A DNA stretch of 62,728 bases, counting the filler, from Sphacelaria rigidula (lineage: Eukaryota): NCBI GenBank assembly GCA_964200075.2. It is 11 parts of 11 records of this genome, joined end to end, with 100 filler letters (N's around TTAATTAATTAA, not from the genome) between each part and the next. Parts side by side here need not be neighbours in the genome. Positions count along the whole stretch, not along the records: positions 28,561 to 34,172 come from CAXNAA020025871.1; 10 more parts are not named here. One strand, 5' to 3'. Below the pieces are notes generated by a model that searched no databases, was not told the DNA's origin, and worked only from the letters and a program-made list of their open reading frames with translations. The position numbers and the translations under genes are program-made. Position 1 is the stretch's first letter, and each line of letters begins with the position of its first letter. Below, one piece after another: positions 3,895 through 54,890 of this stretch.

Positions 3895-3992
3895 AATAGC
3901 TTGTCCTGCTGTCCGAGATAAATTCCTTTTTGCCCGATTCAAATTTATATCGGGCAAAGAGGGATTTATCTCGGACAGCAGGATAAGCTATT
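3895..3992 (+). ncRNA. Pre-miRNA-like hairpin (or micro-MITE)
   Basis: 44-bp stem (aatagcttgtcc...gcccgat / atcgggc...ggataagctatt) with a 10-nt loop. The three non-Watson-Crick pairs are all G:U on the + strand. Confidence 0.45.
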
Positions 3993-5612: not shown

Positions 5613-5712
5613 NNNNNNNNNNNNNNNNNNNNNNNNNNNNNNNNNNNNNNNNNNNNTTAATTAATTAANNNNNNNNNNNNNNNNNNNNNNNNNNNNNNNN
5701 NNNNNNNNNNNN
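5613..5712. other. Artificial contig spacer (first of 10)
   Basis: N44-TTAATTAATTAA-N44, which has stops in all six frames. Identical spacers at 11325, 17037, 22749, 28461, 34173, 39885, 45596, 51307 and 57018 delimit contigs of 5612 bp (x7) then 5611 bp (x4). Confidence 0.97.
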
Positions 5713-11050: not shown

Positions 11051-11424
11051 GGAGGAATTCGAAAAGGAAAAAGACATGGGGGAGGGGAAGGGGGAGTATT
11101 CCTGCCAGATCCGCCATATTCAGTCCGGTAAATATCTGGCTACATGTTTTACCATCTCTATCCTGGTCTCCTCGGCTGCATTGGTATCCTTCGTTTGGAC
11201 TTTCCTACGCTCATTCCCCTGTTTATCCCCCCACCGAGAAGGACCCCCGATGGGGTTGGCGTCGCTTGGCGATAACGCTGTAAAATACGCCACTCACTAC
11301 GTAAGCTAGGCAACCAGGTGACCGNNNNNNNNNNNNNNNNNNNNNNNNNNNNNNNNNNNNNNNNNNNNTTAATTAATTAANNNNNNNNNNNNNNNNNNNN
11401 NNNNNNNNNNNNNNNNNNNNNNNN

Positions 11425-11502
11425 CCTGCTCGAAAGGGGTTCCGGGTTAAGGGTCAAATTCCTAAGGTAAGCAACAAATGAGTACGCCCCCCCCCCCCCC
11501 CC
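11425..11502 (+). mobile_element. LINE 3' end followed by C16
   Basis: ...aggtaagcaacaaatgagtacg followed by a C-run (11487-11502). Homologous to 32421-32486, 35870-35933, 44462-44530 and 45696-45750. Confidence 0.75.
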
Positions 11503-11589
11503 ATCGTAGGATGCCTCCATCTGACCATTCCCCTCAACATGCGAGGGTTATCGCTGGGTTGCCTACCCTTGACGATACCCTACTGTACT

Positions 11590-11837
11590 GACTGCTGCCG
11601 CGATAGCCCCCCCCGAACCGGCCGAAAAAGTGCACGGAGGCGATGGTCATAAATGCCGTTAGAGCTGGTTTCGTGCCGCACGACGCGACTCTTTTGTATG
11701 TTATTGCTGATTTAGTACTGTTACACGCCTCTCATGTGGGCGGAATTGCTGCAAACGAGCCCAATAGTGGGATTGCAGCCGGTTTGTCGGACGGTCTCCG
11801 GTGCACTTATTGTGGGGGGGCTATCTCGGCATTAGTC
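11590..11837. mobile_element. MITE with GACTGCTGCCGCGATAGCCCC TIRs
   Basis: Left end gactgctgccgcgatagccccccc; right end gggggggctatctcggcattagtc. Related ends at 1-70 and 60846-61090. Confidence 0.7.
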
Positions 11838-14800
11838 TACTACTGATTCCAGGGTTTTTCACATGCATGAGCAACTCTGGATCGGGCATAGGCCTCACAT
11901 GACCATACACCTCTGAACTGTGCGGCAAAAAAAGTGAAAAATCGAAAAATTGACATGACTGCAAGTGTCTTTGAGCCGGTCACAAGCCTCTCTCACATGG
12001 CCATCCCTGAACCTGACCGCAAACGTGAAAATCTTGATGGACACCTTGAAAGCTGCTCAGGAACATGGGCTTGTGAAACAGACACAAATGACAATTCGGG
12101 TATAATGAACCAGCGATTGCGCGCACAATCAAGAAAATTCTTCTTTCTGCCATGCGTGTGGGAAGAATATCTACTATATTAAGTACACAAGCTCGACAGT
12201 GTGCATAAAACGATCGGTCACATGCCTACGTGTTGTTGATCACGAAAGAAAGTCCGTGCACGGTGAGCGTAACGTTTGCTGTGGACATGTTTTGTAAATC
12301 CTTGTACAGCATACCGTGCAGCGCACTTTGAATAATCTGGAAAAATATCCAGTCGGCCCTACACTCGTTGTACTCGTACAGTAAATCGTACTTCGAAGTA
12401 CTAGATGTAAGGTCTCTCCCTTCGGACCACTGTCATCAGCAGAGTCGAGCATTGGCGCTGGACGTCCAAGACAGGGTGTAGTAAGTGATTCTGATGACGA
12501 TTTCCCCCACAGCCTTGGATCTCCAAGAGCTCTCTACGGAAGGCGGCAGACGAAAAATTCAACGAAAGCACAATTACTGCTGAAGAAGTGATCATCGCAG
12601 GGCGCACAGAGCACACGGAAGGGAGCGCCTCCGCCGAAACGATACAAGTTATGCCGCTTCTTTCATAATCTTAACTCCAACATTGTCCACATGAGACACC
12701 AACGCGCCCCGCTTAGTACATTCCGCGGTACAGCAGATGACGCGTCTATATTTCATCACGGAGCGGTAGACTTTTATATTCCTGTTCATGGATGATGGTG
12801 CAGACGAAAGAACGAATATTGAGGCTCGGTGCGCTTGCCCACGAGTGCTTTCGACTTTCCACCTCCTTTCGAACCCTGAACATATCGGGTCTGCGAAGTC
12901 ACACTGATTGGCGAGTACCAAAACACTGTACACAGTAGCAGTAGAGCTGTTGCAGAGCAGGCACTCCTGACGTACACCTGCAACGGGAAAACTGGTCAAG
13001 GTATGATGGAATAAAACGTATCATTTCCGCTTATCGTGTACTTATGTAGACAGTTATCTACAGTTGGTCCCCGACCGTCGGGTATAATCACGAGGCATAC
13101 ATTCCGCCGCATTTCATGTCACCCGAAGGACAGTCGCGTTGTTCCTCCGACGTGGTGTTGCTCGGCACTGCTACTCGTACTGCAGTGTCACCTGCCTGCC
13201 TATCACCAACGCCGACTACCAATAACTCTAAATCATTGCGGCGTCGCAGGCATAGGCTGGAGGATAACAAGACTTCGTCGACTTTCTGCAACGGTAGACT
13301 ACGCTGCGTGGTGCGCATTGTGCTTTCTCATGATATCCAGGTTGAGGTAGCGGTTGGAGCATCGCGAGCAAGAAGAGGGATGGGGGCCCGCGACACTACT
13401 GGAAGGTTGAAAAGGGACACAGCTGACATCTTCGAAGCAAGAGCAGGTGCAGACAGAGGTAAGAGCGCTCGCTGCTTCCCCCCCCCCCCCCCCCTAACGA
13501 GTGTGTGGAATGGCGTAACCTGCCTCAATACTGTCTCAATACTGTAGTGCAGTAGTGCGTAGAGAAGGCAGGGCGTCGGTCGGATGCTGGATATGGGATG
13601 TGTTCGAATGATGGAACCGCCAAACACCTTGGAAGCTTCTTCAGTGCCAAGTGATCACTCTGCGCCCATGTATGCCAACGTGAGCGTTTGTGACATTTAT
13701 TGTATTCCTTGACCGCCAGGGTAGACCATCTGAATCCCAAGTTCGTATTTCCAAATGAAAATAATGCCCATTCAACACATAAACTCACTCTGACGGTCAA
13801 CGGGTAAGATCCCATCTTCACGAGACCCAAAACACGAGGCGACGAGCGAAGCAAGCGTCGAAAAGCAGAATATCGATTGATCACCGCAACCATAGGCCCG
13901 TCGCCCTGGTTGCGGAGACTGATCGACGTGCTGATTTTCGACGCTCGCTTTGCTTCTCGCGTCTTTTTTTGCTCCAGCCAAGGTTGACCCTAAATGGACA
14001 CTCTCCTCCTGCAGCGAACATCCCAGGATCATCGCAAAGGGTTTACCCGCGAGGAATCGATGTTCCACGAACCGGGTGTGTGGTTCGCGTCACGCAGTAG
14101 CATCAATATACTGTACCGAAAGCGAGTATAGCAGCGGGGGAACTGTCATGGCCATGATCTTTCGAGTCTTCAGAAGCGCACGTCTCGATGCAGCCATGGT
14201 GCAGTCCTCGTTGAGTGTACACATTCGCGGCGTGTCGTTCTGTCTCTATTGCTTAACTGTGTATCGGCCATACAACTCTGAGGGCTGGTTTGATTTCTGT
14301 GAGGAAGTGCCAGGCTTTGAAAGTACGGGAAAAATGGGTCTGCGGCGCATCGACAGCCAAAGCTGTTGTGAGCTGTAGTACTGATCGTGGTTATGGATTT
14401 ATCGCCACACGAAGTGTAGGACACGCAGCAGATGATCTCCTCTACAAAGCCCATGGACCCTTTTCTTCATCGCCCGTTACATCATCGCTCCACCTCTTGT
14501 ACTCTGTTGGTGACAGTTACATGAGTCGAAACTTAGTGTGGCTGCCCCAGGGGAACCCACATAGTGAAGTCGAGACACCTACACCCCTACAGTCGGTATT
14601 CGGTCGTTGGAGGGTGTACACCAACTACGTTTCATTATATGAGGCATCTCTAAGGATATGCTGCGTGTACGGACAGTAGACCTTCAGTGCAATTCGGGCT
14701 AACCTACAGTCGCACGCTGCTTGCATTGTCGTGGTGTCGGTTTTTGAATGAACGCCATTGCAGTTGATGCGAAAACCCACATGTCCTTTTTTCTTTTGAA

Positions 14801-18405: not shown

Positions 18406-20306
18406 CTGTTCCGCACATTCATTTCGAGCAAACCAAGAGGGCCGTCGAAACGTTCAGTACTCCGTCAAGCACTTGACAACAGAGTACGCAATCAAAAGGT
18501 GTACTGCGTACAGTATCGACTATTGTGCCTATTGCAACAGAAAATATATTACATACTGTACGCAGTAGATTTTTTTGCAATAGAATCTCTTGTCCATGGT
18601 GTGGTGTAGGTAGGATCTGAAGGTGTATCGTTACGATATCGGTGGTTGCCAATGCAGGCGCCGAGGCGACGGCGTGGGCTTGATCAAACTCAATGTAGGG
18701 ATTTTTCATACGTGAATCGCCTGTATCGATATGTATGTAAGACAGTCGCGGACAGCGGGTGTGATTGATTGAAGACCCATGTGATTTCACGCCTAGGTTC
18801 GGGTCCTACCGTCGACGCCAATATAAGACACAGTCGCGGACAGCGGGTGTGACCTATCCTACCCGGACAGCGGGTGTATGTAGGTCGTAGCTTCTCACTC
18901 GGTGAAAGGGTACGGAGTGTACTGAGCCGAGACGTGGATGTGGACTTGGACTGGACGGACTTCGCAAGGCAGGGTTTGGGTTGAAACACAGAGTGCCTGG
19001 GTAGGGGAGGCTCGCACGGGGGAGCCTCTCAAGACGGGAGAGTGACGATCCTAGACCGGGGATTGGATGATGATAGTCCCAGGGTGACAGGCCCGGTAAG
19101 ACGGTCCGGGTTGACTAACTCGGGGTTATCAGTAAGCGGGTCGGGTCATATAAAGGTCCTGATAACATATGTAAGGTTTAGTAGTAGCGGTACTGGAAAG
19201 GCGAGCCTGCGTCTGTGACCACGGTTTCGGGAGATCGGGCTAATGAGCGTGAATAATGATGACAACACACGAGCTGGGGGAGCTGACAATGATTTCTTGA
19301 ATGCAATCGCGTCCGGCGGTGCTACAGTTGAGGAGTTTGGGGCTGAAATTTTGACACGATATTCTCATCATCAACACGCGCAACATTTCTCGGGATGCCA
19401 AGACACGATAAAATAAAACAAAAAGTTGAGTAATTTGAAATTTCAGCAGAAATCGGTGAAAATTCCGTCAAAGACTCCTGAAAAATAATGGGCCCAGCGT
19501 GGCAATTCTTGTGTGACACCGCTGCGCCCAAGTGCCACAGGACGCTCCAGTTATGGAGGTCATGAAATCGAATCCCGACAGATCCTCTTCGTTTCGTTCC
19601 ATCGTTAAGGTCATGCATCGTACAGTACATTTTCATTTTTTTCAGCGACAGAGCGTGCACGACCAGGTTAGTACTTTACCCTTAGACGACTCGAAACGCC
19701 ATCAACTTCACTTGAAAAGGTGTTCGTTGTCCAGATAGACTACCCTCCTCGCGGTCGAGGGGTTTAAATCGGGCCGACTCGGGACACTTAAGAAGTTGTT
19801 GTGTGCTGCCCGTTTGCACGTTTTACGGCTGGCCGAGGTCGTAATGAGCCGAATTGCTCGGCAGGTCGCGGCAAACAAGCTATGTTGAAGCCAATTATCG
19901 ATAAATAACATACAGCATTAATAATACCGTTAATGAATCCTCAAACGTAGTACAGTATATTGATAGCTATGAAGCGGTAACAAAAGCACTCGCTAGCTGC
20001 AGCACAGATTGCAGATTTACTGCCCCCCCCGACACACACACACATTTTTTCTTTTATATTTCACAGAGCCGAGCGAATGGTGGTCGCTACACAGGATCGG
20101 ATAGCCTTACTCCCGCCCTCGCTCCGCTTGAAAAATCTCGAACCATTTCGAAAAAAAAAAGTTCCCGAGCCCGAACATTAGCCACCTGAATTATCCTTCC
20201 TTGCCCCCACTCCCCCCCTCACCCCCCACTTGACGAACACCCTCGTACCACACACGCTTACATTAATGGCCGAATAATGTTTTGGTTCTACGGTATATCG
20301 CCTCAC

Positions 20307-22491
20307 CTGCAACAGCATCCCCACCAACGGCCGCCGAATCAGAGGTCCCGGCACCTTCACCCTTGCCGTCACCACCACAAACAGCGGGCTGAGGGCAAGG
20401 ACCCGGGCCGAGCTCAGGCACCCATGCGGGCCTCAAGGCCTGCAACATCGTGCACGCCACATGAGCGTTCGTGTCGAGGAGAAGCCTCGCCACGAGCACA
20501 ATCAGCGGATCGCTGCTCGGATTGTATATCTCCACGAACTCGGCGGGATCAAGATTGTTCGGGTTGTCGCTGTCGTCCGGGCTCGGCTGCTCACCGTTTA
20601 TGGCATCCACGCTGCAGGCCCCGCCGGCGCTGCTCGTCCCCGTCTCGTACCCTTCATCATCGCTGCTTGCATTGCCGCCGTCGCCGAACGCGACGGCCGT
20701 TGCCTCCGCCGTCTCGTTCCCCGTTTGATAGTTCGTATCGCCGGGAGATTTGGGTGCCGTCGCCCTGGAATCTGGCAAGGAGCCCTGAGAACTACTAGTA
20801 GACTGCTCTTCGACTTGTTGCTGTCCTTGGCCAGACTCGCCGGCGAGGTGGTGCTGCCCTTGAACGTCATCCGCGGCAGCCTCCATTCCGTCGCCGCTGC
20901 GCCCGGTAGTGGTTACCAGCGGCGGTGAGGAAGGGAGAGAGTCTTGACTAGTGCTGGAGTCTTGTCCTCCGCTGGCGGTACTAGCATCAGTCCCCACCGC
21001 ATCACGCACTGCCATCGTCGGTAAATAAGGCGCGGCTGATGCCGACAGAGGCCTAGCACTCCTCATGGGAGTCTTGGCGGCTTCGGTTTCCAAGGCATCA
21101 GTATTCCTGGACGGCTCAGTCATAGCCCCATCCTCATTTTCTACAATATCGGAAGGTGTACCATCACCGCTACTATGGTCATCCCCACTCACGCCCACAA
21201 ACATACTCTCGGCAAGTTGGTAATTCGTTTCTCCGGAGGAGCCAGGGGCCAAAGCACGCGCTGAATCCTCTTCACCCTCAGCCGTTTCGAACACCGCTGC
21301 CTCGGTGAGCTCGTACAATTCTTCTGCTTGTTCGCCGGAATCACCCAGCCAACTGCTCTCGCTGCCGCCGCCGGCATCTTCTCCCGCATCATCGTCGTGC
21401 TTCGCAAAGGGAAGCCGCGGGCCCTCCGGTGATTCATTGCCGTGGCCGCTTGTGCCAAGCTCCTCATTCCCATCCCCATCCGGGCGATTCTCGGGAGCGT
21501 CAAAGCCGGCTAGATCCATCAGCTCCGCGGCCATGGCGGCCTCGGCGGCCATATCCGCTGCCGCCGCAGCGGCCGCCGCCGCTGCCATCGCCACTTGCAA
21601 AACCTTCCCGTGACACACCCGCCCTCGGTCACCAGCTTCTCCGCCCACCCCTCCGACAATACCCAGCTCTCCCCGTCCTTCGAATCCGCTGAAGTTTGCG
21701 CTGCCATCATCGCACTTATCACCTTCCCCGGTAACGCAGCAGCACGTCGCCATGCTATCGTTCTCCGATCCAGATGACGACCTCGATCGAGCCCCGCCGC
21801 GGCTACCGCCGCTCTCGCCCGCCCCGTTTTCAGCCGCGCCGGCCCTGGAAGCCCCGTGCGCCGCCACATAGTCTTCGAACCCAACCATCAGTCGAAGCAT
21901 CTCGCCTAGAGAGACCGCCGCTGTACCGCGCACCTCAGCGGCGGGGTCATCAACCAAGCACGCGGCGGCGGGCATCAAGGCACCGAGTATATTTTTGCGT
22001 GCTTTTTGACTAGCCTCCCCCAGCCCGCCGTCTCCCGCCTGTCCTCCCTCTGCCGCTGCGGCGTCCAGGGATATCTCTGATTCACTTCGTTCATCCTCGC
22101 CCGCTTGACTGCGGTCAAGGTCGTCGGCAATGTTGGCGATGGGCTCCTCTTCGTTCCCAGCCACCGCCGGTGACCCCGGTGCCCCCGCCTTCGCCGTGGG
22201 CGGCGTAGCTTCCGACGCTGTTGTTTTCATCGCCGCTATTTCGCCAGCACTATCAACGTTGTGAGAACTGGGTTGCCCTGCCGACAGGTCCCTGACACCC
22301 GTCACTTGTGTGACTGCCTCATTAATCGGATCTTCTTTACCTTCGCTGGTACCGCCATCGGCTCCGATGTCCCCTGCACTACTTTCTTCTTTCTCCCCTC
22401 CACTGGTCGGTACTGTTTGCGGCTCGCCCGCGTGGCCGGACATGGCGAACCCCAGGAGTATTCGGGCGAGGCGCGGCAAGCAGCGAATCGC
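20307..22491 (-). CDS. Large internal exon of a HEAT/ARM-repeat protein (PP2A-A/PP4R1-like scaffold possible) with long low-complexity insertions
   Basis: 2185-nt open exon between a polypyrimidine ttttccccctttag| acceptor and a GCAG|gtgagg donor. HEAT-like segments: AIRCLPRLARILL, ILGALMPAAACLVDDPAAEVRGTAAVSLGEML, LIVLVARLLLDTNAHVACTMLQAL. Confidence 0.8.
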
Positions 22492-22848
22492 CTAAAGGGG
22501 GAAAAACAAACGCGTGCGGAATGGGGCACGACGATGGAAGGCGCGTTAATCAAATTTGCCTGCGAGCGCGGGTTTGCAATGTAGAGTTTTTTCGCATGCA
22601 CAGTCCACCGCATGCGTGATACGGTGGGCTTGTGCGAACTTGCGAGAACGTATACAATAGGCTAGCTTTTGCCCAGCACGAGTAATCGGCGGCGGCGGAT
22701 GGCGGCGGCGGGGGGGGGGGGGGGGGGCTTTCGGGGGGGGACAGCACCNNNNNNNNNNNNNNNNNNNNNNNNNNNNNNNNNNNNNNNNNNNNTTAATTAA
22801 TTAANNNNNNNNNNNNNNNNNNNNNNNNNNNNNNNNNNNNNNNNNNNN

Positions 22849-29338: not shown

Positions 29339-30984
29339 GTGGAAGGCGAGCAGTCGGGAGGACCGAGGTCGGCGTTGAGCGAGCAACAAGGTGGGGCTGG
29401 GGATGTGGAAGAATGTGCGGTAGCGCTTAAACGGTCAGCGCGCTCAGCCGATCCTCAACCAACCTGTACAGCACTCCATAATGCAGCGGCAAAAAGTCAA
29501 CGTTTTTTGGAAGACAAAAGTGGTTCGTTTAGCAGTATGCTTGAAACTCTGACTGTATTGCCCGTTCCCCGCGTTGATGTATCTCTGATTCGGCGTTGGT
29601 TTGGCGAAGTGAAAGAGTTTCCCGACATAAATCTGTTGGTGCAGGTTGTCAGTATTGGGCCACCGGTTGCGGTATGTGGGCGCGGAGATTTGGTTGCGGC
29701 GCTCCAATACGGAAACAATAGTTCTGTCAGACCATATTCGGAAATTTTGGCAAAACTTGTGTAGGATATGTTACTTGGGAGAGCATTTGTTTTTCCACGT
29801 CACGCAGCTGCTGCTATTCCAGGTCTTCGCGTATCACCTGTGACAGTCGCTGTCTCCCCGTCAAAGGTTCGCATTTGTCATGATTTGTCTAACGCTGTGT
29901 CTGGAAAGAGTGTAAACGAAGATACTGATACATCGGTGGTACCGGAGTGTAAAATAGGACATTTGTTCCGCAATGTGGCGTGGCGAATTTTGTACCTTCA
30001 CGGAAAATTTGTTGGCAATGTCGAGTCCCCCCCCCCGAATTCTGCTTGCCAAAATGGATACCAAGAGTGCGTTCCGTCAAATCCAAGTCGATGTGGATAA
30101 GGCGCCGACGTTTGGGTACGTGTTCGAGGAATTTGTAATAATAGACCGGTGTCTTCAGTTTAGATGGACTAGTTCGCCCGCGTTGTGGGGGGTGGGCGCA
30201 GCAGCTGTCCAGCACGCGCACAACAACACGACTTTCCGAAACGCAGAAGCCATAGAAGAAGGCTGTGCAGCCGCTAGACATGTACGTGTAGAGCCACCTC
30301 GAACAGACGAGGTGCGCGCCGAGTCGCCACGAGATTATGTTCATCCCCCGGGTATGGGCGGGGAGCTGCGCGACAAGTTTTGGGTAGAGACGTTTGTGGA
30401 TGACGCGCTGTTCGTGGAGGCGGAGAGTTTCTTGGCAGGCAGACGGTGTCTTCGCGCTACCCGATCCTTTGCTTCTGACAGTTTTCGTTTGTTTGGTAGT
30501 CGTCGGGAACCTGGAATGCCTCCGTTGTTTGCGCGCGAAAAAACGACGTCCTGGGACACTCGCATGGAAATGTTGGGATGGGCGATTGACACAGTAGCGA
30601 TGACCATTTCCGTCCCACAGCGCAAGATTGAGAATCTGCGGGGCATTTTAGACCAATGCCCAGTAGAGAGGAAGGAAGTGTCAGTTAAGGAAGTGCGGTC
30701 GTTGGTGGGAAAGCTTCTGCACTTGTGTGAGGTCGTGAGACCGGGAACGTTTTTCGTGCGGCGTATTCCGAACCAACTAGGTCTAGCGCCATTCTCGGCA
30801 GGCGAAGCGGCGGACAAAGGATTCGTAGCAAGGCGCGCACAGCGCCGGGGATGCGTTCGGCTGGGTCCAGAATTCCATGATGACCTGGCTTTTTGGAGGT
30901 TGATTTTGGATATGGCTACAGGGTTAGACGGTGTGACTCGGTTAGAAGCACCTCTGCCGTGCTGTTTTTCTGCAGCTCCCAAGC
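29339..30984 (+). pseudogene. DIRS-type reverse transcriptase
   Basis: RVSPVTVAVSPSKVRICHDLS, LLAKMDTKSAFRQI, LQFRWTSSPALW, catalytic FVDD, and MEMLGWAID. There is an in-frame TAG at 29762 and a frameshift in the C-run near 30030. Confidence 0.88.
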
Positions 30985-31593
30985 TTGATAATCATTAGCG
31001 ATGCCAGCGGGGATGCCATGGGAGGATACTGTTTGGAAACCGGGAAATGGTGGAGGATAGATTTCACTCCGGATGTACGTGCACGCCTCCGTACCCGTGT
31101 GCTTTCTAGAGACGATTTGTCGATGAACGTTTTCGAGCTGCTGGCTATGATAGTGACGGCATGGGCGTTGACTGTGCAAGCTGGGGAACGACCGGAGTAC
31201 CTCGGGCAGAGTATCTTGATGCGAGGGGGCAACATGAGCGCTGTTCACTGGGTAAACAAATGTAGGGGGGCAAAAGAGCCACGGTCGGGGGCGCCCATGC
31301 GAATGATGGGCGTGTTGGAAATGCGAAACGGGTGGCGGTTCCGTGCGAAACACACCAAAGGGGTAGCAAACACTCTTGCCGATGGTATCTCGAGGTGGGA
31401 CCGTGCTGACATTGCTCGTTACTTGCACTTTTTTCGGCCCGACATTTGTTGGCAGGAGCAGCGGCTCGGGAAAGAAGCTCTGGACCTTACTTTTGCGGTC
31501 TTGGCGTCGAGCTCGTCGGAAAGTCAATTGCGGCTTCGTCTAAACGAAATTACAAGGCGGGTTTCCGGTCTTGGTGTCTCTTTCGCGGGTTGA
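30985..31593 (+). pseudogene. DIRS-type RNase H domain
   Basis: IISDASGDAMGG, MNVFELLAM, RG(D>G)NMSAV and KGVANTLADGISR. It is joined to RT across a frameshift near 30965. Confidence 0.88.
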
Positions 31594-31619
31594 TAGGCCG
31601 GGATTAATTTTTCGGCGAC

Positions 31620-32686
31620 GAGGCATCGGTCGAAGAGATGACTTGGGATTTGGTCGATTTCGCGGCGTGGTGTTTCAATTCCCAAGGGAACGTAGCTAGT
31701 ACGATATCGGGCAACTTTGCGGCGGTGAAGTATTTTCATAGGATGGAGGTACAAGTAGAAGTCGTCACCACGTCTCCGGTGTTGAAGTGTGCGTTAAAAG
31801 GGATTGCGAGATCGCATGCTGACACAAGCACGTGCCGTCGAACTCGCTTTCCGGTCACATGGCAGATGTTGTTGGACGGAGAATGTTTGATCCCATCGTG
31901 GGGCGTTGGGGGAAAGGTACTGTGGCTTTGCTTGAGCTTGAGCTATTTTCCTGCTCACACGGTCGGACGAGATGTCTGCGAGTACGTCGGGAGTGGTACA
32001 TTCAGTGCATTGTCTTACACGTAGGGACGTGGCGTTTTTTTCAGGGGATACCCAGCTGACGTATCTGCAGTGGCGCCAGGCTGACAGGATAGAGGTACAT
32101 TTCCGGGGCCACAAAGGGGATCAGGGGCAGAGAGGCGAAGTAAGGGTCCGTACGCGAGAAGAAGTCCGTGGTCCGCATGCGGGGTACAGAGCAGATGGCG
32201 GTGCAGTTGCTCTGATGCTGGAGTTGTTGTCATGCTACGCGACATTGCCCGCAGACGCTCCACTATCTTCTTACCACTATGGTCGGGGAGTCAAAGTATG
32301 AAAGTACAACGAGGCACTTCGAACGTTGAGAGAGGTAGTCGAGAAGTCGGGTCGCGACCCGAAAGACTTCGTTTTACACTCGTTGAGGATCGGAGGGACA
32401 TCCACTATGGTAGCAGGGGGCGTACTCATTTGTTGCTTGCCTTAGTCATTTGACCATTGACCACGCATCCCTTTCGAGACGGAGCACACTATGGTAGCAG
32501 GGGGAGAAATATCAGATCGAGTAGCGCAGAGGGAAGGAAGGTGGAAGTCAGATGCATACAGCGTACACTGTTAACAACATAGAAGACTGGCGACGAGTAT
32601 CGCGCATTCTTGGAGATAAGAACAGGGGAGTTAGTAGACAACCGGGGGAAGGTACTGTGTGGGGGAGTTACAAAAAGAGGCGGTGA
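31620..32686 (+). pseudogene. Tyrosine recombinase, interrupted by a LINE 3' fragment
   Basis: LTRSDEM (Arg), FRGHKGDQ (Lys), HSLRIGG (HxxR) and GRWKSDAY. Removing 32421-32504 restores HSLRIGGTSTMVAGGEISDRVAQREGRWKSDAY. Confidence 0.88.
32421..32486 (-). mobile_element. 66-bp 5'-truncated LINE insertion with an 18-bp TSD
   Basis: cactatggtagcaggggg at 32403-32420 and 32487-32504. The insert is the reverse complement of tgctccgtctcgaaagggatgcgtggtcaatgg...aacaaatgagtacg. Confidence 0.92.
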
Positions 32687-32717
32687 ATTCCGATGCAGTG
32701 AAAAACTCCACGACCTC

Positions 32718-33623
32718 GATATAGGTGAAGGAATGGTTGAGTACCATTTGGGGACTTGGTCGATTGAGATTTTCACGTAAATTAGGAGCGTTCATGTGTC
32801 CCCCTGGTTGTTCTAAGGGAGAGAGAGAGACAGTTTTCATGAGCTGAGATACGATAGTCTATGGCAGACGGGTTTAGAGATCGTGCCCTGCAAGAAGTCG
32901 TATTTCTCTCTCTCTTGCCTTCGAGCCCGAAAATATTAATGAAAAAGGAAATTCGAAAGAATAGCAATAAAGGGGAGGTTTGTTCAGAAAGAAGCAAACC
33001 GTCGTTTATTGCAAACATCGAATTGGCCAAAGAAGCGTCTATTTGTTCAGTCGCTCTTTTAGGGTCACGGAGGAACAGTCAAACAGTCAGCCGCCTTTTT
33101 ATTGTTTCAGTCGTCTTTTGAGGGTCACGGGGGAACAGCTGAATAGCCAGCCCCAAGCGTTCACTTTGCGGGAAAGTCCACGGATAGTCAAAACAAGGAG
33201 ACGCAAATCAGCGTAGGTTGGAGACACAAAAGGTGGACAGAGAGAGCATAGAAGGAGTTTGACCAGTTCGACAGGGGCCAACAAGTTTTATCAATTAGGT
33301 GCGCATTTTTGCCGCCCACCCACCCGTTTTCTTTCAAGGGTGGAAGGGAAGGGAGAGGGATTGCTTGATATAGGGTGAAGGAATGGTAGAGTACCATTTG
33401 GGGACTTGGTCGATTGAGATTTTCACGTACATTAGGAGCGTTTATGTGTCCCCCTGGTTGTTCTAAGGGAGAGAGAGAGACAGTTTTCATGAGCAGAGAC
33501 GCGATAGTCTATGGCAGCAGGGTTTAGAGATCGTGCCCTGCAAGCAGTCGTCTCTCTCTCTCTCTCTTGTCTTCGGGCCCGAAAATATTAATGAAAAAAT
33601 CAATTCGAAAGAAAAGCAATAAA
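32718..33623 (+). repeat. Split direct repeats B1 (32718-32971), A2 (32972-33366), B2 (33367-33623)
   Basis: Two ~255-bp highly similar copies (gatatag...gcaataaa) flank a ~395-bp segment that has an internal 60-bp-period duplication (33040-33152). Confidence 0.88.
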
Positions 33624-34112
33624 AGACAAAATCAGCGAGGCACAAGCAGGATTCAGATCAAACCGTAGAGGCGTAGACCATGTGTACACGCGAAGTAAGA
33701 TCATTCAGGGTAGGAAAGTCACCGGGCGGACAACGTACTGTTTCTTTCTAAACGTTCAAAAGGCTCATGACACAGTATGGAGAAATGGGTTGTGCAAGAC
33801 GTTGTGGGAAGCTGGGATCAGAGGAAAGATGTGGAGNNNNNNNNNNGATGTGGAGAATGGTGAAGAAGATGACAGAATGTGCCACAGGTGCCATGATGCT
33901 AGACGGGGAAATATCGAAATATTTCGATATCGTACGAGGAGATGCACGAGGGTGTACGTTATCACCCGCTTCGTTCAAGGTATATATTAATGACTTGATA
34001 ACAGCAATAGAAGCAGCAGAGCAAGGTGTTCGGGTGGGTGAGGATATGGTATCAGGATTGATGTTCGTGGATGATTTTGTGGGGATTCAAGGAACACCAG
34101 AAGGACTACAGA
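33624..34112 (+). pseudogene. Non-LTR (LINE) reverse transcriptase fragment
   Basis: ISEAQAGFRSNR...YCFFLNVQKAHDTVWRNGL...G(D)ARGCTLSP.SFKVYINDL...GLMFVDDFVG. Confidence 0.9.
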
Positions 34113-34272
34113 CGAGTCATCCTACGATAGGGGGGGGGTATTTGGTTGCACGAAAAAAGAGGCTCATAAGTGNNNNNNNNNNNNNNNNNNNNNNNNNNNN
34201 NNNNNNNNNNNNNNNNTTAATTAATTAANNNNNNNNNNNNNNNNNNNNNNNNNNNNNNNNNNNNNNNNNNNN

Positions 34273-34497
34273 CTGTCATCCAAATGCAAGATAATCAGTA
34301 GGCTTTGGGCCGAACAATCTTAGCAGGATGCAGATCACCCCTCATGTGACTCGCCGAACACACCACGGTGCTTCGCGCTTGGTGATTGAGTGCGAGCCTG
34401 GTGAAAACCCGGCATGCTCCGTCCCGGCTTTGTAGGGATGCGAGGTCAATGGTCGTATGACTGTTGCATGCATGATCATGAGTACACCCCCCCCCCC
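34273..34497 (+). mobile_element. SINE-like non-autonomous retroelement, 3' part followed by C11
   Basis: caaatgcaagataatc...gatcatgagtaca followed by a C-run. Copies at 35109-35352 (-), 35356-35661 (+), 44099-44456 (+) and 60505-60790 (-). The last ~70 nt are homologous to the LINE 3' end. Confidence 0.8.
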
Positions 34498-35108: not shown

Positions 35109-35661
35109 GTGTACTCATGATCATGCATGCCATGGTCATATGACCACTGACCTCGCATCTCTACAATGCCGGGACGGAGCACGCCGGGTTTCCCCCGTAC
35201 CAGACTCGCAATCAATCACCAAGCCCGAAGCGCCGTGGTGTGCACGGCGAGTCGCATGAAGGGTTAGCTGCATCCTACTGAGATTGTTCGACCCGAAGTC
35301 AATTGATAGTCTTGCATTTGGATGACAACCCGCGATGAGCTGCTTCATTTTCACTCCACAGGGGTGAGGCAGCCGTGAGGCAATGTAAACGGTGGCTGTC
35401 TCTGGAAGTGGAGGTACCCGAAAATGAAGCGACTCGTTGTAGGCTGTAATCAAAATGCAAGATAATCAGCACGCTTCGGGCCGAACAATCTTAGCAGGAT
35501 GCAGCTCACCCTTCATGCGACTCGCCGAACACACCACGGCGCTTCGCGCTTGGTGACTGATTGCGAGCCTGGTCCGGCGGAAACCCGGCGTGCTCCGTCC
35601 TCGCTTTGTGAGGGTGAGAAGTTACTGGTATTATTACTATGGCATGCAAGATCATGAGTAC
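35109..35661. mobile_element. Head-to-head inverted pair of the same SINE-like element
   Basis: 35109-35352 is a diverged reverse complement of about 35420-35661. Confidence 0.8.
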
Positions 35662-35680
35662 CTTGCCCCCCACTCCCCCC

Positions 35681-35953
35681 GTCTGGGAAATGAGCGAAGG
35701 TGGCATGGAATCGTTTGGTACATCAGCACTATACTAGGAAATAGATGGTGGCCACCGACAGAGGAACAGGACGCGGATATGATACGTGAAACGTTTCTGT
35801 GTGACGTATGCAAGAAATGTGACGTGCGCCAATATGTTGGAGGCGTTTCCATTAGGAGTAGAAACCGTACCCTGTCTCGACAGGGATGCGTGGCCAATGG
35901 TCAAACGACTGAGGCAAGCAACTAATGAGAATGCCCCCCACCCACCCCCCCCC
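35681..35953 (+). mobile_element. LINE ORF2 C-terminus and 3' end inserted in the C-rich tail of the SINE
   Basis: LGNRWWP...GGVSIRSRNRTLSRQGCVANGQTTEASN*. Flanks ccccccactcccccc (35666-35680) and ccccccacccacccc (35934-35948) look like a TSD. Confidence 0.7.
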
Positions 35954-37127: not shown

Positions 37128-37163
<36 letters not shown>

Positions 37164-38320: not shown

Positions 38321-40358
38321 GTCGCTATCGTAGTGCTGCGAGGTTCCGAGAACATTGGGGGTGTCCACAGGTGTGAGTCGGATGAACTTTTGTGCGTGTG
38401 TCCATCCATCATACATGCTACACTCTGACAAATTATCAAGAGAAAACGCTGCCATTTGCTGTACCCAGCCGCACAAAAGCCAAGGTAGAGGGTGTGGCGA
38501 GTACCAGAGCAGACATCATCATCGCGACTGCAGTATGCGGTTCTGTTCGTTGCAAGTGTGCTGTGGATGTCTCTGCGTGTTTGCTCGGGTTATTTTGTTG
38601 ACGTAAAACGTCGTTCATTCATCTGATTCACACTCACGCCCGTTGCTATTTCCAGACCTATCTGCGACTGCGGAAGAATCAGCCGTGCTGTCGTGACTGT
38701 ACTGTTGTTATACTGGCCACGGTTTCACCCGAAGTCCAGCTAGCTACGGTACTGTTATGAAACACAACGTTAAGAACCCACTGTACTGCGGTAAACAAGT
38801 ACAGGCTGCACTTTGCACATACAGTACGGGGTATGCAGGCATTTGTAGGCGGGTCAGGAGGCGGCCTCTCATGTCGCGGCGGTGTTATCGGCTGTCCGTG
38901 GTTCTACACTGTTGTGACTGTAGGATTCAAGGTTACTTCGTCTATCGTACATGCAGATGATAGGGCATGACATACAAATTGAACGGACAAGCACCAGCCA
39001 AATACGGTAGCTGGCGCATACAGTACAGTGCAGAGCAGCCGGTTACGATGCAGACTTCACGACTGGCTCGAATGGTCAGTGCAATAGAGCAGTGCAGTAT
39101 AGTACACTTGAAAGGTGATGCATTTCGAGGCGGTGTTGTCGGCAATGTCTGTTTCACACCGTCGTGATTGTATGGTTCGAGGACACTTTCTAAATGGCAC
39201 ATGTGGATGCATAGGACATGACATACGGACTGAAGGGTCGAACCCCAGAAAAATTTGCAGTAGCCGGTACGCAGTACAACTACTGTACAGTAGTGCAGCT
39301 GTTCACAATGAAGATTTGACGCCTTGAACGATGGTCAGAGCAACAGTAGTACAGTACAGTACATGGTACACAACAGCGCATGCAGGGTAAAGTGGTAATT
39401 ACAGAGTACACCACAACTAACGAACAGAAGAGCTGAACACCGACACCTAGATGTTGTCTGTTCCGGTGCGCGCCACGCCCTCTCTACCTCGGGTTCCACG
39501 TCCGGCTGGGTACACAAGCGGCGGCGCTTTTCAAACCATGATTCTTGTTTCATCGGACGCATTTTTTCGATCGAAAAAAGGGACGTTGGAATGGATTTGA
39601 GCGAAATTTCCTCATATTTGTAGAGTTGTTCACACGTCGGACAGATCAGTTTCTATGCGATCCAGCTCCTACAGGTGAAGTATGGACACATTTGTGTACC
39701 TGATTCGAATGATACAGTGCAACTAGTCATGGAAAGGTCCTCGTGATCCGGGTACCATCGATCACGAGGGTGATATCTCGTACGGGTCATCAGGATACAC
39801 ACGCTGTTGTTGCCATTTCGAGTACACCTGACTCGGATTACATGGGTGTACGCCAAGAGGTGATGTACGGATGCACAGAGTATANNNNNNNNNNNNNNNN
39901 NNNNNNNNNNNNNNNNNNNNNNNNNNNNTTAATTAATTAANNNNNNNNNNNNNNNNNNNNNNNNNNNNNNNNNNNNNNNNNNNNTTGGTGTGTTGTTCAT
40001 TTTTTATTATTTATATCTATTTTATTATACTTTCGCACTCTCCCCCCCCCCCCCCCCCCCCCCCTCCTTCCTCCTCGGGACGAGTCCGTGATCTCAAGGG
40101 ATCACCGCGTCTCTCCCCCGTACACGCCTTGCATTTTGGTCTCGCGGATTGGGTCAGCACTACTTCCGCACCGCGTCACCTTTCTCGTCGAACAAATTCA
40201 GTCAGTTGCTTTTTCACGGTTCCAATAATATCGTGATTCGACTCATGTTCAGTGTATGTGGGAACCAATCTTACGATTCGTACACGAGTTGTGATTCGTA
40301 TATGTTGTGGATTTGCAATTCGTGCAACACTACTTGGAGTCTACACATTCGTATGGTA

Positions 40359-41512: not shown

Positions 41513-44098
41513 CGGCATATTATATATATATAAGATAAATATGTAAGAACCCCTGATGAAAAAAATAAATCTCTTCGTTCTCGAGCATTTCTTTTATCCG
41601 GCAGAGAGACATCCTAACAAAATGAACGGTGTTCTTGTGATGATGTTCTCATCCTCTATTGTCATAGGAGGAGTACTCTCACCACCTCCGTCGCCGTTGA
41701 ATATCCATCGCGACAGGCCACAAAAATGATACGGTGTCCGCAAAATTTGAGATGATCGACCGTTTGGCGTGAGTAGCAGTACTCAGACGTTGGCTTGACA
41801 TGCTGGACAAGCTGGGCGTCAAATTCCTGTGGTTTTCGTTGTATTCGATGTAAGCATTTACCCGCTAGTGGACTCTTCTATCCCAGTTCGTGTAGACTTT
41901 TGAACAAACCGAATTATGCTACACATGGTTACATTTCGCACGATGCGTAGCAAAAGCGCACAGGGAGCTGCGAGTAACTAAGGGGGAAAAAAACGTCATC
42001 ACGTAGGTACCTTCGTCAATTCCTGCAGTCACTGAATCGCCGGCTAACTTACTGATATCGTTCTTCGGGGTGTATGGAGACGTACCCCTCTGTGCAACAA
42101 TCAAAATCAATCAACCAAACTTTTCGGGGGGGGGGTCATGTGTCAATGTCCATTGATTTTTCAGGATGAAATCTTTGGAGGACGGTATCCACCACAATTT
42201 GCGTCAGTTGCCTTTGCTCGTATGGGACGTATCCTCTTCTCATGTTGGTGCCCCCGCACATGCGTTTTCCGCGGAAAACCCATGTCTGAGGGCTGCAGCG
42301 CGATGTCTTCGTGTCCGCCTGATACTGCACGGGGGTGGGTACAGCACTCGTACGCGCTCGTCAACACGACGTCTACCTCGGTAAAGGTCAACTCTCCGTA
42401 TTTCACATGCATTCATCACGCGTATCAACTTTGTACTGCGCGTTTTGAATGGCAGGGTCGTGGAGAAAGACCTCCCCGTGGCGGTGGAGGATATCGTCGA
42501 CGACTTTTACAGGGGCGCCGTGGTCAACAGCGGGTGAGAGACACCACAAAAACGTACACTATATCACAAGAGATCGCATCCCTGGAACTATTATTGGAGC
42601 TGGGTGTCACTAACAGGCAATGCCCTGTACTGTATGCGTCAAGAAATGTACGAGACAAATCTGCAACGGCGGAAGCCCCGGCGCCACTAGCACCGTACTC
42701 ATACGTAACACGCGTCTCTTCATTTCTCACCGCATGATGCTTACGCGTTTAACATGCGCGGATACGTGCCTGTTGTTTGAGGTGTTGCATTCCATGTAAT
42801 GCACAACTGACATTAACTCCAGGTGGACGAACACCGCATTTTTTTATGGTATCACGAGTGTTTGCGGGGGGCGTGTTTGGCATCCTCACACGAGGGCGCA
42901 TGGAGAGCGATGACGCGGGAGTTGGATCCTACGCAGTGAAGGGGTGCATCATTCTCCTTGACGTGTCCACACCTCGCTCGTGGGACGCATGCGCCCTGCG
43001 TGGTCAAAGTGCCCAATCGGTGCCTCACCTTACCGTCACTTTCCCGCGGAACCATTGCGCTGTCATATTTAAGCGGGGTATTGCGACCAGATTGTCAGCC
43101 TTCTAGACCAAACACCATAAACCGGCACACACACCGCGATGCTGTCATAGATATCGCTTGTGCTCGTGGAGTCGAGATTCAGGCTGTGCGTCTATCCGTC
43201 CATCAACTGAAACCGAAACGGCTGTGGCCAGGCAACGTGGCGGGTTACCGCCGATGTTTGAAGGTCACGCTGTCACACCCGAATCGTATCGTACCCCTTT
43301 TGTTGTGTTGACAAGGTATCCTCGGTTTTCCAAGTTGCAGCTAAAGGCCTCGACCATACCCTTTGTTTTTCAATTTTTATTTGTCGTAAGTTCAGAAGCC
43401 TTGGTTGTAACCATCGCTGTCGCTTCAAGCGTATCACTATGTCCCGTAACACTGGGGCGGCCTAGAGATGAGCTTCCGAATCGCCCCGCTATCCTGTGAA
43501 TATCGCCTTCGTTATCTTGCACATCAAACGACAGCCGCAGCTTGAATTCCATGAGGCCGTGATGGTATGCAACGGGGTGCGTTTCACGTAATGGCACCCA
43601 CGCTGCAACCACAGACGACAGCTTATCTCAACTGGAGCTACCGCGTTGGAGTCTTGCCTAGACAGGTCATCCCCACATAGTATTCCTATGGGAATGTCTC
43701 GTGGCTTTGTGCAAGCTCAGTGTGTCGGGACTGTGTTTCGACGCATATGGTGCTTTCCCGACGGATTCTCTGCATGATGTCATGTGCTACAAAGTAGGCA
43801 GCTGCTTCGTATGCAAGCGAAAATCAAACTGCAAATGGAGCTCAAGGGAAAACTTCAAAATCCCCGCCCTTCGACGTAGACAAATATGTTCAGCTTCGTA
43901 GCCGACAACCCCGCACATGAATGTGTGGAACCGCTGCATATCACACCCGATATCAGGGCTAATTTCGTAATGTTGAAGCGCCCGCGGGTTTTAACGTTCT
44001 CACACAGCCATGAAGCGTTTGCGCTTTCCTTTACAACGTTTTTTACACGCGACCTGGAGTTGAACCATGTTGTGTTGTCTCCTCCCCACCTCCCGCCC

Positions 44099-44456
44099 AT
44101 ATGCAAGATATTCAGTAGGCTTCAGGTCGAACAAACTTAGCAGGATGCAGCCCATCCTTCATGCGACTCGCCGAACACATCACGGCGCTTGGCGCTCGGT
44201 AGTTGATTGCGAGCCTGGTCCGGCGGGAACCCGGCGTGTTCCGTAACGGCTTTGTAGGGATTGTCGTTCTGTTCGACCCCTCTTTTTTTTTTTTCTCAGA
44301 GTGTGTTTCACTTTCATTTTTCTTGGGTACGTCCATCATGACACAACGGCTGGACCCCCGGGGGGTCACTTAAAGTGCGACAATCAATCTATCAATCAAT
44401 CAGGGATGCGAAGTCAATGATAATATGACTACGACATACAAGATCATGAGTACACC
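44099..44456 (+). mobile_element. SINE-like copy split by a nested 140-bp retro-insertion
   Basis: The insert (44262-44401) ends in a (TCAA)n-like tail and is flanked by AGGGAT at 44256-44261 and 44402-44407. Confidence 0.75.
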
Positions 44457-44461
44457 AAACC

Positions 44462-44583
44462 CGGTGCTCCGTCTCGGGAGAGATGCGGGGTCAATGGTCA
44501 AACGACTAATGCAAGCAATAAATGAGTACCCCTCCCTCCCACCCGCCCCCCCCCCCCCCCCCCCCCCCCCCCCGCCCCCCCCC
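44462..44583 (+). mobile_element. LINE 3' fragment with a long C-run directly behind the SINE end
   Basis: cggtgctccgtctcggg...ataaatgagtac followed by a C-rich tract running into a 10-N gap. Confidence 0.75.
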
Positions 44584-44850
44584 NNNNNNNNNNGGGGGAA
44601 AGGGGGGGTAAAAGCAAAACCAACAAATCAAAGAAAAAAATAATTCCCCCCCCCCCCCCCCCCCCCCCCCGTCTGCCCGCGCGCTCGCCTAAACACGACG
44701 GCCGAACGAATTCGCGGAAACTGCACACCTGGAAACGGAAACAATGTTGTCGCCGTTGTACGGGATCTAGTACCGTCTCAAGTGACCTCGTTTGATGTGC
44801 CTGCGTGTGTCTTGCACCGAAACACTGAAAACGAAACTGCCGTATGCCAG

Positions 44851-44966: not shown

Positions 44967-45695
44967 GTGAGGGGTTTTTGAAAAAATTGATGTCGCCGTG
45001 TATATTCAAGTTCGTCAAGGGGGGGGGGGGCGAGTCTCCCAGTATTAAAATGGCATGCAGTTGTTGGCCCGATATAACGGTGGCCTGAATAACGGAACGT
45101 CCGGTTTAGTGGCATGATAATCGCTTGGCACCGCCTCGGCGACATGAGCGGCATTCTCCAGTCAGCGGACCCCCTTCTTAGCTGTGGGGGCTACGCATTC
45201 CACACACAACCACCTGCTCACACGTATCATACTAGCATGCGCGGCTCTAGAACAAGAATAAAAGTGCTATATATCACTGGGAAATGCAGAACTACGACGA
45301 CGCGGCGCACCACGTCCGAAGTAGAACACACACCACTACTGCGACCAGATTCCACGAAGACCTGTCGCTAATAGACAACCCACAGCCATTTCTCCTCTAT
45401 GGCGGCAAAATTGTCGCTATTACCGCACCCAATAGCGGCAAAAATACCACCATTGAGGAACGGCGGTATTGCCCTGAATAGCGGCATCCCCCCCCCCCCC
45501 CCCCCCCCCCCCCCCCAGCGCCCGCCCCCCCCCCCGACCCAGCGCCCGCCCGCCCCGGCCACCCGGACCCACCGCGCCCACCCCCAGCGCCAACGNNNNN
45601 NNNNNNNNNNNNNNNNNNNNNNNNNNNNNNNNNNNNNNNTTAATTAATTAANNNNNNNNNNNNNNNNNNNNNNNNNNNNNNNNNNNNNNNNNNNN

Positions 45696-45762
45696 GAAAG
45701 GGATGCGTGGTCAATGGTCACACGACTAAGGCAAGCAACGAATGAGTACGCCCCCCCCCCCC
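45696..45762 (+). mobile_element. LINE 3' end followed by C12
   Basis: gaaagggatgcgtggtcaatgg...gaatgagtacg followed by a C-run at 45751-45762. Confidence 0.8.
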
Positions 45763-52960: not shown

Positions 52961-54890
52961 TCCGAGCGGTATCATCCCGGTGTGTTTGTCATCACCACCC
53001 GTCATGATCCTGGCGAGAATCATGCTGCTACTGGCGCCTGAAGCTCGTCTCGATACCATTGCCCAGCCTGAGCATCACCCTCTCCCGAGGAGGAACAGGA
53101 GGCGAAGGTGAGAATGCCTGCTCCATGCTTGAGGTCATCGAGCCAAAGGCCCTCATATTTGCTGCCGTCGGCGTACTCACACATGCCTACATCATGATAG
53201 ATAATTACAACGCATCGGGGAGGAGGGGAGCGGGCAGGTCGATGTGAGATGGTGGAGTCGATTTAGGCGGGCGGACTGGTCATTCTCTATCCAATAGTGA
53301 CTCATTTTTCCCACCACCGGCAGCTTTTGAGACCGTGCGGGCTCGTCAAACCGCTCGCACCACTATCACTTCTCCATATCCTCCCTATCTAGTGGGGGCA
53401 TGTCCGTGCCTGACGTGACTCTGTTGAGGCAATTTCTCTCTACATGTTGTGAGGAACAGAGCATTGTGCCTACAAGAGCAGAGATCATCGGACGAGTATG
53501 AGAACGGACGGAATAGTCGTGCAGTAACAACCGTTCTTTTGGGCACAACATTTGGCTCAAATAAATGAGTACGTTGGCGGGAGGGAGGGCTAGCGGGTGC
53601 GGTATTTCGTCAAGGGAAGCGTCGCACTGACGTCCGTCGGGTTGTTTACCGTTCAGATCCCATAGCCGTGGACATGTGCTGGCCGGAGGTGGGTAAAGTC
53701 GGTTTGTCTACAACTACGTGAATACTGTATTTCTTCTCGGATAGTCGGGGAAGCCAACACTTCGTTTCAGAAGCCAGGACGCCAATAAATCTACGTGGTC
53801 GTCCAAACTCTGACACCTGAAGAGATAGCGTTAGGTTTACATACGTGTAAAGATCCTTCCGCGCTGAGGCAAACAGAATTGCATGGAACGGCCAAACTCC
53901 GTTAAGAAACCGGTTTATGGAACCGATATCTTCCTTTCCAATGGAACTCGATTCTCCCGGCGACAGCAGTGCTCATGGGGTCGATAGCCGTATTTTCGAT
54001 TAGATCTCGTTGAAATCGATTGATGGAGCTGTCCCTTCGGTAGTGCAAACTCCTTGCGTTCGAAAAAACCGAGTTCGGAAAATGATATCACGGGGTGCGG
54101 TAACCTCGGGTTTTACCGTAGGTCGCTCGGACGCCTGAGGGGTTCGGGGAAAGCCAATCGTCCGAGCTGGAACCGGATCATAAAATGGCCATGTCATCTG
54201 ACACGGGTAGTTTTGGAACAGCTCAACACCTCACTTGGGCTTAGAGTGACATACAAATATCGACGGGCTAAATGAGAGCGTGTCAGCTTGAGCGGAGATC
54301 CTCACCTCTCCCGCATCTGACACCTCCAACCCACTTGCCGGTGTAGACTTGGCGTGTAAGCCCGCATCGGAATACTCCCAGCCCGTTCTGTCGCCCATTT
54401 CGCCAAGCCCCTGGATTTTTTATGGTGTTTTCGTGTATCAATATGGCTTGATCAAAGATCTTGCGAGCCAGTGCAATGGGTATGGCGTGTACACCCGCGA
54501 CGAAGATCTAAGATTGTTAGCGGAGCTTCCGTCCCTGTCGGGTTAATGTAAAGTTCTAGGATTCTCATTACTTTGTTCTAGAGTTCAGACGGGTTAATGT
54601 AAAGTCGTAGGATTCTCATAAGTACGAATATTCTCATAAGTAAGAACTTAGGCGTAGCGCATTGATCCGAGGGTACTTGTGGGTTGCCCCCACACCCTCT
54701 CACTCTCTTTTTCTTCTTCACTCTCTTCACTGAGATTCTCGGCCACACAAGCGCCAATTTCCAACATCAGTCTTTTCGACAAGCAAGTGTGCTTTACCGC
54801 CACTTCGTGCTGGCTCTGTGCATCTCCTTGAGATATCACGCCATATCAAGAACTACCTCGTTCTTTCATGGAACATACCATCGCTCTCAC

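Follow-up and report, generated by a model that had tools for sequence, protein, structure and literature searches.

In L1 retrotransposition, an APE-type endonuclease frees the 3′-OH of a T-run that is complementary to the poly(A) of the L1 RNA, a tail that is added by the cell after transcription. We know of no cellular step that adds C's or a C-tail. Templated simple repeats are found at the ends of the 'stringent' LINEs with partner SINEs, such as UnaL2 of the eel, whose repeat is (TGTAA)n, and the I factor, whose repeat is (TAA)n. In addition, the Dong/R4 and Mino/Kibi/Koshi elements insert into existing microsatellites with units of 2–3 nt.

The closest described relatives of the locus studied here are LINE families of Ectocarpus, listed in supplementary file 1 of an article on the transposable elements of Ectocarpus that appeared in Genome Biology in 2025 (PMC12477816). 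There, the accessible entry for RTEX-1_Ec32 gives 'single EN-RT ORF; (C)n 3′' and a 'C-rich' target site duplication (TSD), and that for RTEX-2_Ec32 gives '(C)n termini/TSD'. The non-autonomous RTEX-N1/N2_Ec32 elements share their 3′ 60–100 bp, their TSDs are likewise C-rich and they are noted as elements that 'can be present in tandem', and the Ectocarpus RTE and CRE elements end in (CAA)n and (CA)n, respectively (PMC12477816). The accessible portion of the main text of PMC12477816 does not discuss the C-run or its mechanism ('c-rich', 0 occurrences), and excerpts of the Saccharina genome paper also report an RTEX-1 element. A first-pass annotation of our locus had known of no described poly(C)-tailed LINE family and had advised looking for a prior description. 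The former statement does not hold given the RTEX-1/RTEX-2 entries, and the latter check finds the behavior already annotated, for a relative (PMC12477816). As judged from these entries, the C-tail itself is not a new kind of LINE end, being known for Ectocarpus RTE-X (PMC12477816). The literature searched yielded no paper that deals with the mechanism behind poly-C or C-rich LINE tails; the bioRxiv supplements and the curated consensus library may hold more.

Our analysis concerns a 62.7-kb stretch of Sphacelaria rigidula DNA, which we refer to as the window. It is eukaryotic, repeat-rich and a mosaic of 11 equal pieces of ~5.6 kb (5611–5612 bp), joined by linkers of the form N44-TTAATTAATTAA-N44 (at 5613–5712, 11325–11424 and then every 5711–5712 bp), and distances that span linkers are meaningless. 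Two LINE tails (11425 and 45696) and one copy of a second repeat family, termed family B (34273), lie exactly at piece starts. The features discussed below are collected in Table 1.

Table 1. Positions of the LINE copies, family-B copies and associated features in the window.
Positions	Strand	Feature	Remarks
11425–11502	+	LINE tail + C16 (11487–11502)	5′ part cut by piece start
29958–32576	+	Decayed host element	RT-like ORF with FVDD; C-terminal reading frame HSLRIGG...GRWKSDAY
32403–32420		TSD copy on the 3′-end side	In element orientation, CCCCC TGCTACCATAGTG
32421–32486	−	LINE copy, 66 bp, 5′-truncated	Final 20 EN-RT ORF codons + TGA + GTACG
32487–32504		TSD copy on the 5′-end side	18-mer match and empty-site joint 32402→32487
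33622–34111	+	Internal RT fragment, same LINE group	72–79% amino acid identity; 3′ side cut off
34273–34497	+	Family B	Ends GATCATGAGTACA + C11
35109–35352	−	Family B	Inverted relative to its neighbor; no C-run after it
35397–35682	+	Family B + C-rich tail (CTTGCCCCCCACTCCCCCC)	Shared tail
35685–35953	+	LINE copy, 249 bp (35685–35933), + C-rich tract	5′-truncated; directly behind family-B C-rich tail
44097–44455	+	Family B with ~130-bp internal insertion	LINE copy directly after it
44456–44583	+	LINE tail, ~70–75 bp, + long C-rich run	Directly behind family-B 3′ end
45696–45762	+	LINE tail + C12 (45751–45762)	5′ part cut by piece start
60498–60771	−	Family B	No clear C-run after it

The insertion that defines the target site to the base is the 66-bp copy on the minus strand. 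The first-pass annotation had described it as a LINE 3′ fragment between perfect 18-bp TSDs, and both the count of the 18-mer and the identity of the insert bear this out. The TSD CACTATGGTAGCAGGGGG is present as two perfect copies (32403–32420 and 32487–32504) and has only these 2 matches in the window at ≤3 mismatches, versus 0.02 by chance. The segment 32416–32487, which spans the 66 bp, aligns at 100% to sense positions 5086–5157 of L134, a contaminant contig of 5259 bp that lies behind locus L120 and carries the LINE. In reverse complement the insert reads TGCTCCG...GCAAGCAACAAATGAGTACG, with the terminus ...AAATGAGTACG, and by tblastn it matches ORF2 amino acids 662–681. The 3′ end of the element at 32421 directly adjoins the C5 of the TSD, and since each of the two TSD copies has a run of C5, this insertion gained no C.

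The pre-insertion site is also preserved in contigs of public sequencing runs. We compared contigs from four runs (X1–X4; at most three samples from two studies) with positions 31900–33000. One contig each in X1 and X2, which belong to separate studies, joins 32402 directly to 32487, skipping 84 bp with 18 letters that fit both sides; the shorter side of this joint is just 19–20 letters, which makes the support good, not overwhelming. Among the contigs placed on 31900–33000 in X3 and X4, a bridging contig was absent. The joint without the 84 bp confirms that the exact pre-insertion site is known, as had been claimed, and the TSD gives the proposed first-strand nick position, GGGGG/A, on the plus strand of the window.

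The insertion lies in a repeat that is multi-copy in runs X1–X4, and excision of the 84 bp joins ...HSLRIGGTSTMVAGG to EISDRVAQREGRWKSDAY.... We read this host element as DIRS/Ngaro-like with a putative tyrosine recombinase, based on a His-x-x-Arg to Tyr end and motifs recognized by eye; with Pfam at E up to 5 there was no match for its RT-like or recombinase-like frames. Because the recombinase-like frame contains a further stop upstream, the host copy is decayed, and because 84 bp is a multiple of three, the downstream host frame is kept with or without the insert. The earlier statement that excision restores the recombinase frame thus stands in part. The insert brings in-frame stops that excision removes, but there is no frame shift to undo, the upstream stop remains, and the name recombinase is an assignment by eye.

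Copies outside the window provide the coding context of the 66 bp. An internal 18-mer pattern returned 114 loci from metagenome contigs, 4 of them true copies and 110 chance matches, and a terminal 19-mer pattern returned 6 loci from prokaryote genome bins, including 2 true copies, both on clearly algal contaminant contigs. A scan of viral contigs gave 4 loci and 0 true copies. The bacterial bins G001 and G002 carry algal LINE contigs (L119/L136 and L120/L134, respectively), which represent eukaryotic contamination, and G001 holds at least 7 RT matches together with 10 family-B matches. Contig L134 encodes an intact single EN-RT ORF of 1382 aa, whereas L017 and L047 each have a 680-aa frame that is open at the locus edge and runs through the 66-bp region. 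All three frames end in ...KASNK-TGA-GTACG followed by a C-run, in agreement with the earlier observation that the ORF2 stop is 5 nt from the end. It had also been suggested that a full-length ORF2 be rebuilt and its endonuclease inspected, and the L134 ORF carries an APE-type endonuclease (Pfam Exo_endo_phos, E=8.1e-11, aa 193–415; Exo_endo_phos_2, E=1.4e-7) along with RVT_1 (E=6.7e-32) and a Cys/His motif at its C-terminus. RVT_1 was likewise identified in the 680-aa frame of L017 (E=2.8e-33). The best solved relatives of the LINE RT are the L1 ORF2p and R2 reverse transcriptases (E ~1e-21; structures including 8UW3 and 8C8J). No second ORF of ≥100 aa was seen on the L134 ORF strand in the 1 kb upstream, and the 5′ end of the element lies beyond the 5259-bp contig. 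The non-LTR RT domain and the N-terminal apurinic-like endonuclease identify the element as an autonomous LINE of the APE-endonuclease type with a single EN-RT ORF of ~1380 aa. Copies 5′-truncated to 66, ~70–75, 249 and 338 bp and copies of >2 kb all have the same terminal base.

The closest named proteins are unnamed Ectocarpus sp. products, the best of which aligns to 99% of the 680-aa query at 58% identity. The single EN-RT ORF of L134 is the arrangement recorded for RTE-X in the Ectocarpus curation, where the element is ~5.5–5.9 kb. The other recorded trait, a (C)n 3′ end with a C-rich TSD, is represented by a C-run in 11/11 copies, one TSD starting with C5 and one C-rich flank pair. Based on these protein matches and shared features, the LINE most likely belongs to the RTE-X group of brown algae. 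Membership in the L1 clade was rejected, with an A-tail in 0/11 copies and no ORF1 seen on L134, and a SINE was rejected for the 66-bp insert, which is the coding end of ORF2. A Pfam scan of 188 window ORFs of ≥90 aa found no LINE body adjoining any window tail; its matches were a weak RVT_1 at 33848–34171 and MORN repeats at 54856–55944.

The 3′ ends of the LINE copies have a common continuation. The 20-mer at the 3′ end has 5 sites in the window at ≤3 mismatches versus 0.00 expected (11467–86, 35914–33, 44511–30 and 45731–50 on the plus strand, 32421–40 on the minus strand). C-rich 3′ flanks had been reported for the four plus-strand copies, and all four are present: C16 at 11487, a C-rich tract after 35933, a long run at 44546–44583 and C12 at 45751. 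The long run reads C28+C9 and abuts an N10 gap (44584–44593), so that its length is unsure. Outside the window, six copies (L017, L047, L029, L084, L119 and L120) end in ...TGAGTAC(G/C) and then a C-run, with C8, C10, C11, a C-rich 17-mer, C13 and C8-T-C9 among them, and the patterns that retrieved these copies contained no C-run. Overall, 11/11 assembled copies (5/5 in the window and 6/6 outside) have a C-run of ≥5 behind their 3′ end, with lengths from 5 to >37 and interruptions by a single T, A or G. The sequencing runs extend this to many more copies. Tens of thousands of contig pieces in X1–X4 fall on the 66 bp, and the consensus of the loose contig ends beside 32415–32417 is a plus-strand G-run of 16–20. 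Behind this consensus are 233+1248+244 contigs in X1 and 53+243+60 in X4, with X2 and X3 close to X1 in number, giving a range of several hundred to ~1,700 contig ends per run in the four runs. An A-tail was present in 0/11 assembled copies and in none of the four contig-end consensuses. The view of the element as a LINE without poly(A) is therefore upheld by 11/11 copies and four runs, and mostly A-tailed ends or random flanks, named beforehand as the refuting case, were not seen. These observations demonstrate that a C-run after the 3′ end is the rule for this family.

What follows the C-run is less uniform. In three copies the 11-mer ATCGTAGGATG comes after it, at 11503–11513 (+), at 34118–34128 (−) and at L047 88–98 (−), with unrelated sequence beyond. 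Because these three copies share ATCGTAGGATG past the run, the copied RNA can evidently hold the C-run in its interior; they may represent a subfamily whose RNA extends past the C-run, or a 3′ transduction that began with a single source copy. Beyond this short motif, ten downstream flanks that were compared have no mutual homology. Antisense LINE sequence occurs as a downstream flank solely at 34129 (−), where it is an older RT fragment (the flank of L134, as the reference, was excluded). The consensus of the shared tail is predicted to fold into a small hairpin, with negligible covariation (a compensatory change in 1/8 pairs).

Family B is a non-coding repeat of ~270 bp or more that ends in GATCATGAGTAC and has only its last 65–75 nt in common with the LINE. 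Five copies lie in the window, two of them arranged 5′ to 5′ at 35109–35661, and their 3′ flanks are a clear C-run in 2/5, a LINE copy directly in 1/5 and no run in 2/5. A family-B core of ~65 bp is found at 10 places in bin G001, and the family-B end had 0 matches in genome contigs. Family B probably corresponds to the RTEX-N elements of Ectocarpus.

The target sites of the LINE are less well defined than its 3′ end. Of four copies with both ends visible, the 66-bp copy alone has a clean TSD, and no exact repeat of ≥7 bases was found around the other three. The 249-bp copy is preceded by CCCCCCACTCCCCCC and followed by CCCCCCACCCACCCCCCCCC, an imperfect C-rich duplication, and these C-rich flanks arise because the copy sits 4 nt behind a family-B C-rich tail. 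The copy at 44456 starts directly after a family-B 3′ end with hardly any C between and has no TSD, nor has the copy at L136:349. The existence of a G-run target rule is thus suggested by very few sites. The sequencing runs contain a further arrangement, in which contigs reach the end of the tail and then go back by 63–73 positions. Such joints, in dozens of contigs per run (X1–X4), are head-to-tail units of the 66–67-nt tail plus C-run, and successive units are separated by G, GG, GGG and so on (plus strand). At the 5′ edge of a tandem unit, many loose ends are again homopolymer, and many tandem units begin at the same base as the 32416–32487 copy. As many units share the start of the window copy, 66–67 nt is a recurrent unit and not a random truncation point. 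Repeated insertion into earlier tails would be expected to give a tandem pattern of tail plus C-run, but does not cover the constant length of 66–67 nt.

The window also contains features apart from the LINE. Several long C/G runs have no recognizable adjoining LINE tail, namely C17 at 13478–13494, C35 at 37129–37163, C23 at 40042–40064, C25 at 44646–44670, C29+C11 at 45488–45535 and G18 at 22710–22727; these could be decayed old tails or stem from another homopolymer source. Three C8–C9 runs (46–54, −; 11607–11614, +; 61071–61078, −) have ...CGATAG before them and similar A-rich sequence after them, and look like a further small repeat, not related to the LINE tail, that contains a C-run. An inverted repeat pair at 68–421 and 871–1220 (354 bp, 97% identity) and two palindromic stretches (9008–9451 and 3890–3997) may be DNA transposon ends. 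The MORN repeats (Pfam E=3.6e-22) lie in a 363-aa open frame on the minus strand (54856–55944) that is probably a host gene exon. A 742-aa open frame at 20266–22491 (−) is a low-complexity sequence with abundant Ala, Gly, Ser and Glu, lies where the window is most GC-rich (0.61) and has no Pfam match.

We consider it likely that these observations reflect an RTE-X-type LINE with a templated C-run at its 3′ end that inserts by target-primed reverse transcription (TPRT) from a G-run. The transcript would have almost no 3′ UTR (GTACG) and a templated C-run in place of poly(A), and since no cellular C-tailing step is known, this run must come from the parent element by copying. At the locus described here, the endonuclease would nick the plus strand of the window at 5′-GGGGG/A-3′, the 3′-OH of the G-run would pair with the terminal C-run of the LINE RNA and prime reverse transcription, synthesis would stop after ~66 nt, and a second nick 18 bp away would generate the TSD. 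The 5′ joint may use a GTG common to target and element. In subsequent rounds, the C-tail of an old copy would present a G-run target on the opposite strand and new copies would land behind old tails, which would account for the copies behind family-B tails and for the tandem tail/C-run units in the runs. Family B is presumably mobilized through its shared last 65–75 nt. The first-pass interpretation as a whole, which this model largely follows, is partly supported. As read from the sequence, annealing of the freed G-run to an oligo(C) RNA end and a G-run-specific endonuclease are plausible; the choice of G-runs may lie with the endonuclease itself or with pairing that selects among its nicks. 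The event at 32421 itself does not need an RNA C-tail, because C5 is present in both TSD copies.

That last point also speaks for the main rival model, in which the C-runs are wholly target-derived. Here the RNA would end in ...TGAGTACG without any pairing, and the endonuclease or chromatin access would pick existing G/C homopolymers, many of them older tails. Nothing was added to C5 at 32403–32504, two copies lie directly behind older tails, and many C/G runs of the window are away from the LINE (25 C/G runs versus 9 A/T runs of ≥8, at an even base composition). We nevertheless regard this model as unlikely. At least 8 C or a longer C-rich tract follows 10/11 copies, and the contig-end consensus is 16–20, while such targets are rare (base rates per window position of 0.0014 for C8 and 0.003 for a following C5). 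Moreover, in three copies the C-run lies inside the copied unit, before the shared 11-mer, and the curated Ectocarpus consensus, according to its catalogue entry, has (C)n as its own 3′ end (PMC12477816).

Two further accounts of the C-runs are less likely still. Untemplated addition by the RT at initiation, or later replication slippage of a short run, would fit the lengths of 5 to >37 and the single T, A or G interruptions, as slippage and decay give. It is improbable all the same, as untemplated addition would have put C's at the 32421 junction, where there are none, and slippage covers length variation but not a run that starts every copy. The idea that the runs are sequencing or assembly artefacts of homopolymers, such as two-color poly-G calls, draws on the one long run that abuts the N10 gap (44584–44593) and on the two copies at piece starts. 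It is scarcely credible, because six unrelated outside contigs (metagenome records and two bacterial bins) and four runs of two studies have the run at one and the same junction, oriented alike relative to the element. In addition, the run is curated, by its entry in the supplementary file, in a near-complete Ectocarpus assembly of the long-read era (PMC12477816).

The model of a templated C-run with G-run-primed TPRT can be taken one step further, with somewhat less than even confidence. This lineage might have its endonuclease, primer and tail tuned to one homopolymer, so that each new tail would be the best next target. Such self-targeting would build arrays of 66-nt tail/C-run units and could chiefly account for the surplus of long C/G runs in these algal genomes.

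Comparison with the described systems places the element closest to RTEX-1/2_Ec32 and RTEX-N1/N2. To the extent of their catalogue entries, the likeness covers the single EN-RT ORF, the (C)n end, the C-rich TSD, tail-sharing tandem partners and a very high copy number. It differs in that the host is another species, the best Ectocarpus protein is at 58% amino acid identity and is not tied to RTEX-1 or RTEX-2, and the exact nick site is given here by one young insertion. New relative to that record are the base-exact nick site, the second host, the picture of self-targeting and tandem units and the mechanism proposed from the sequence; the gain is one of mechanistic detail and a second host, and not a new kind of element. 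For genome annotation, the family accounts for many long C/G runs and tandem 70-nt repeats and for the assembly breaks at these places.

With L1 the element shares, in the proposed mechanism, a homopolymer 3′-OH, here a G-run, complementary to the homopolymer at the RNA end, as well as variable TSD length, frequent 5′ truncation and insertion into older tails. Unlike L1, its C-run would be copied from the parent element, its 3′ UTR is 5 nt, and it has a single ORF with no ORF1 seen on L134. With the stringent LINEs (UnaL2, the I factor and, from the catalogued entries, the Ectocarpus RTE and CRE elements) it has in common a templated simple-repeat end, a very short 3′ UTR and a partner, itself non-autonomous, that has only the tail in common with it. 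In contrast to these, its repeat unit is a single base, so that the tail doubles as a homopolymer target in the manner of L1; in its own tail, the predicted hairpin has negligible covariation (1/8 pairs). As in Dong/R4 and Mino/Kibi/Koshi, the tail repeat is also the targeted repeat, whereas here a G5 inside coding sequence sufficed, and because this was enough, targeting is loose. The locus offers a clean natural example of TPRT on a non-A/T homopolymer with a nick site known to the base. It suggests that the L1 pairing rule, in which the primer run is complementary to the RNA tail, is valid for other homopolymers, with a tail inherited by copying. If true, this LINE would be the C/G counterpart of the L1/poly(A) system, with no need for a cellular tailing enzyme.
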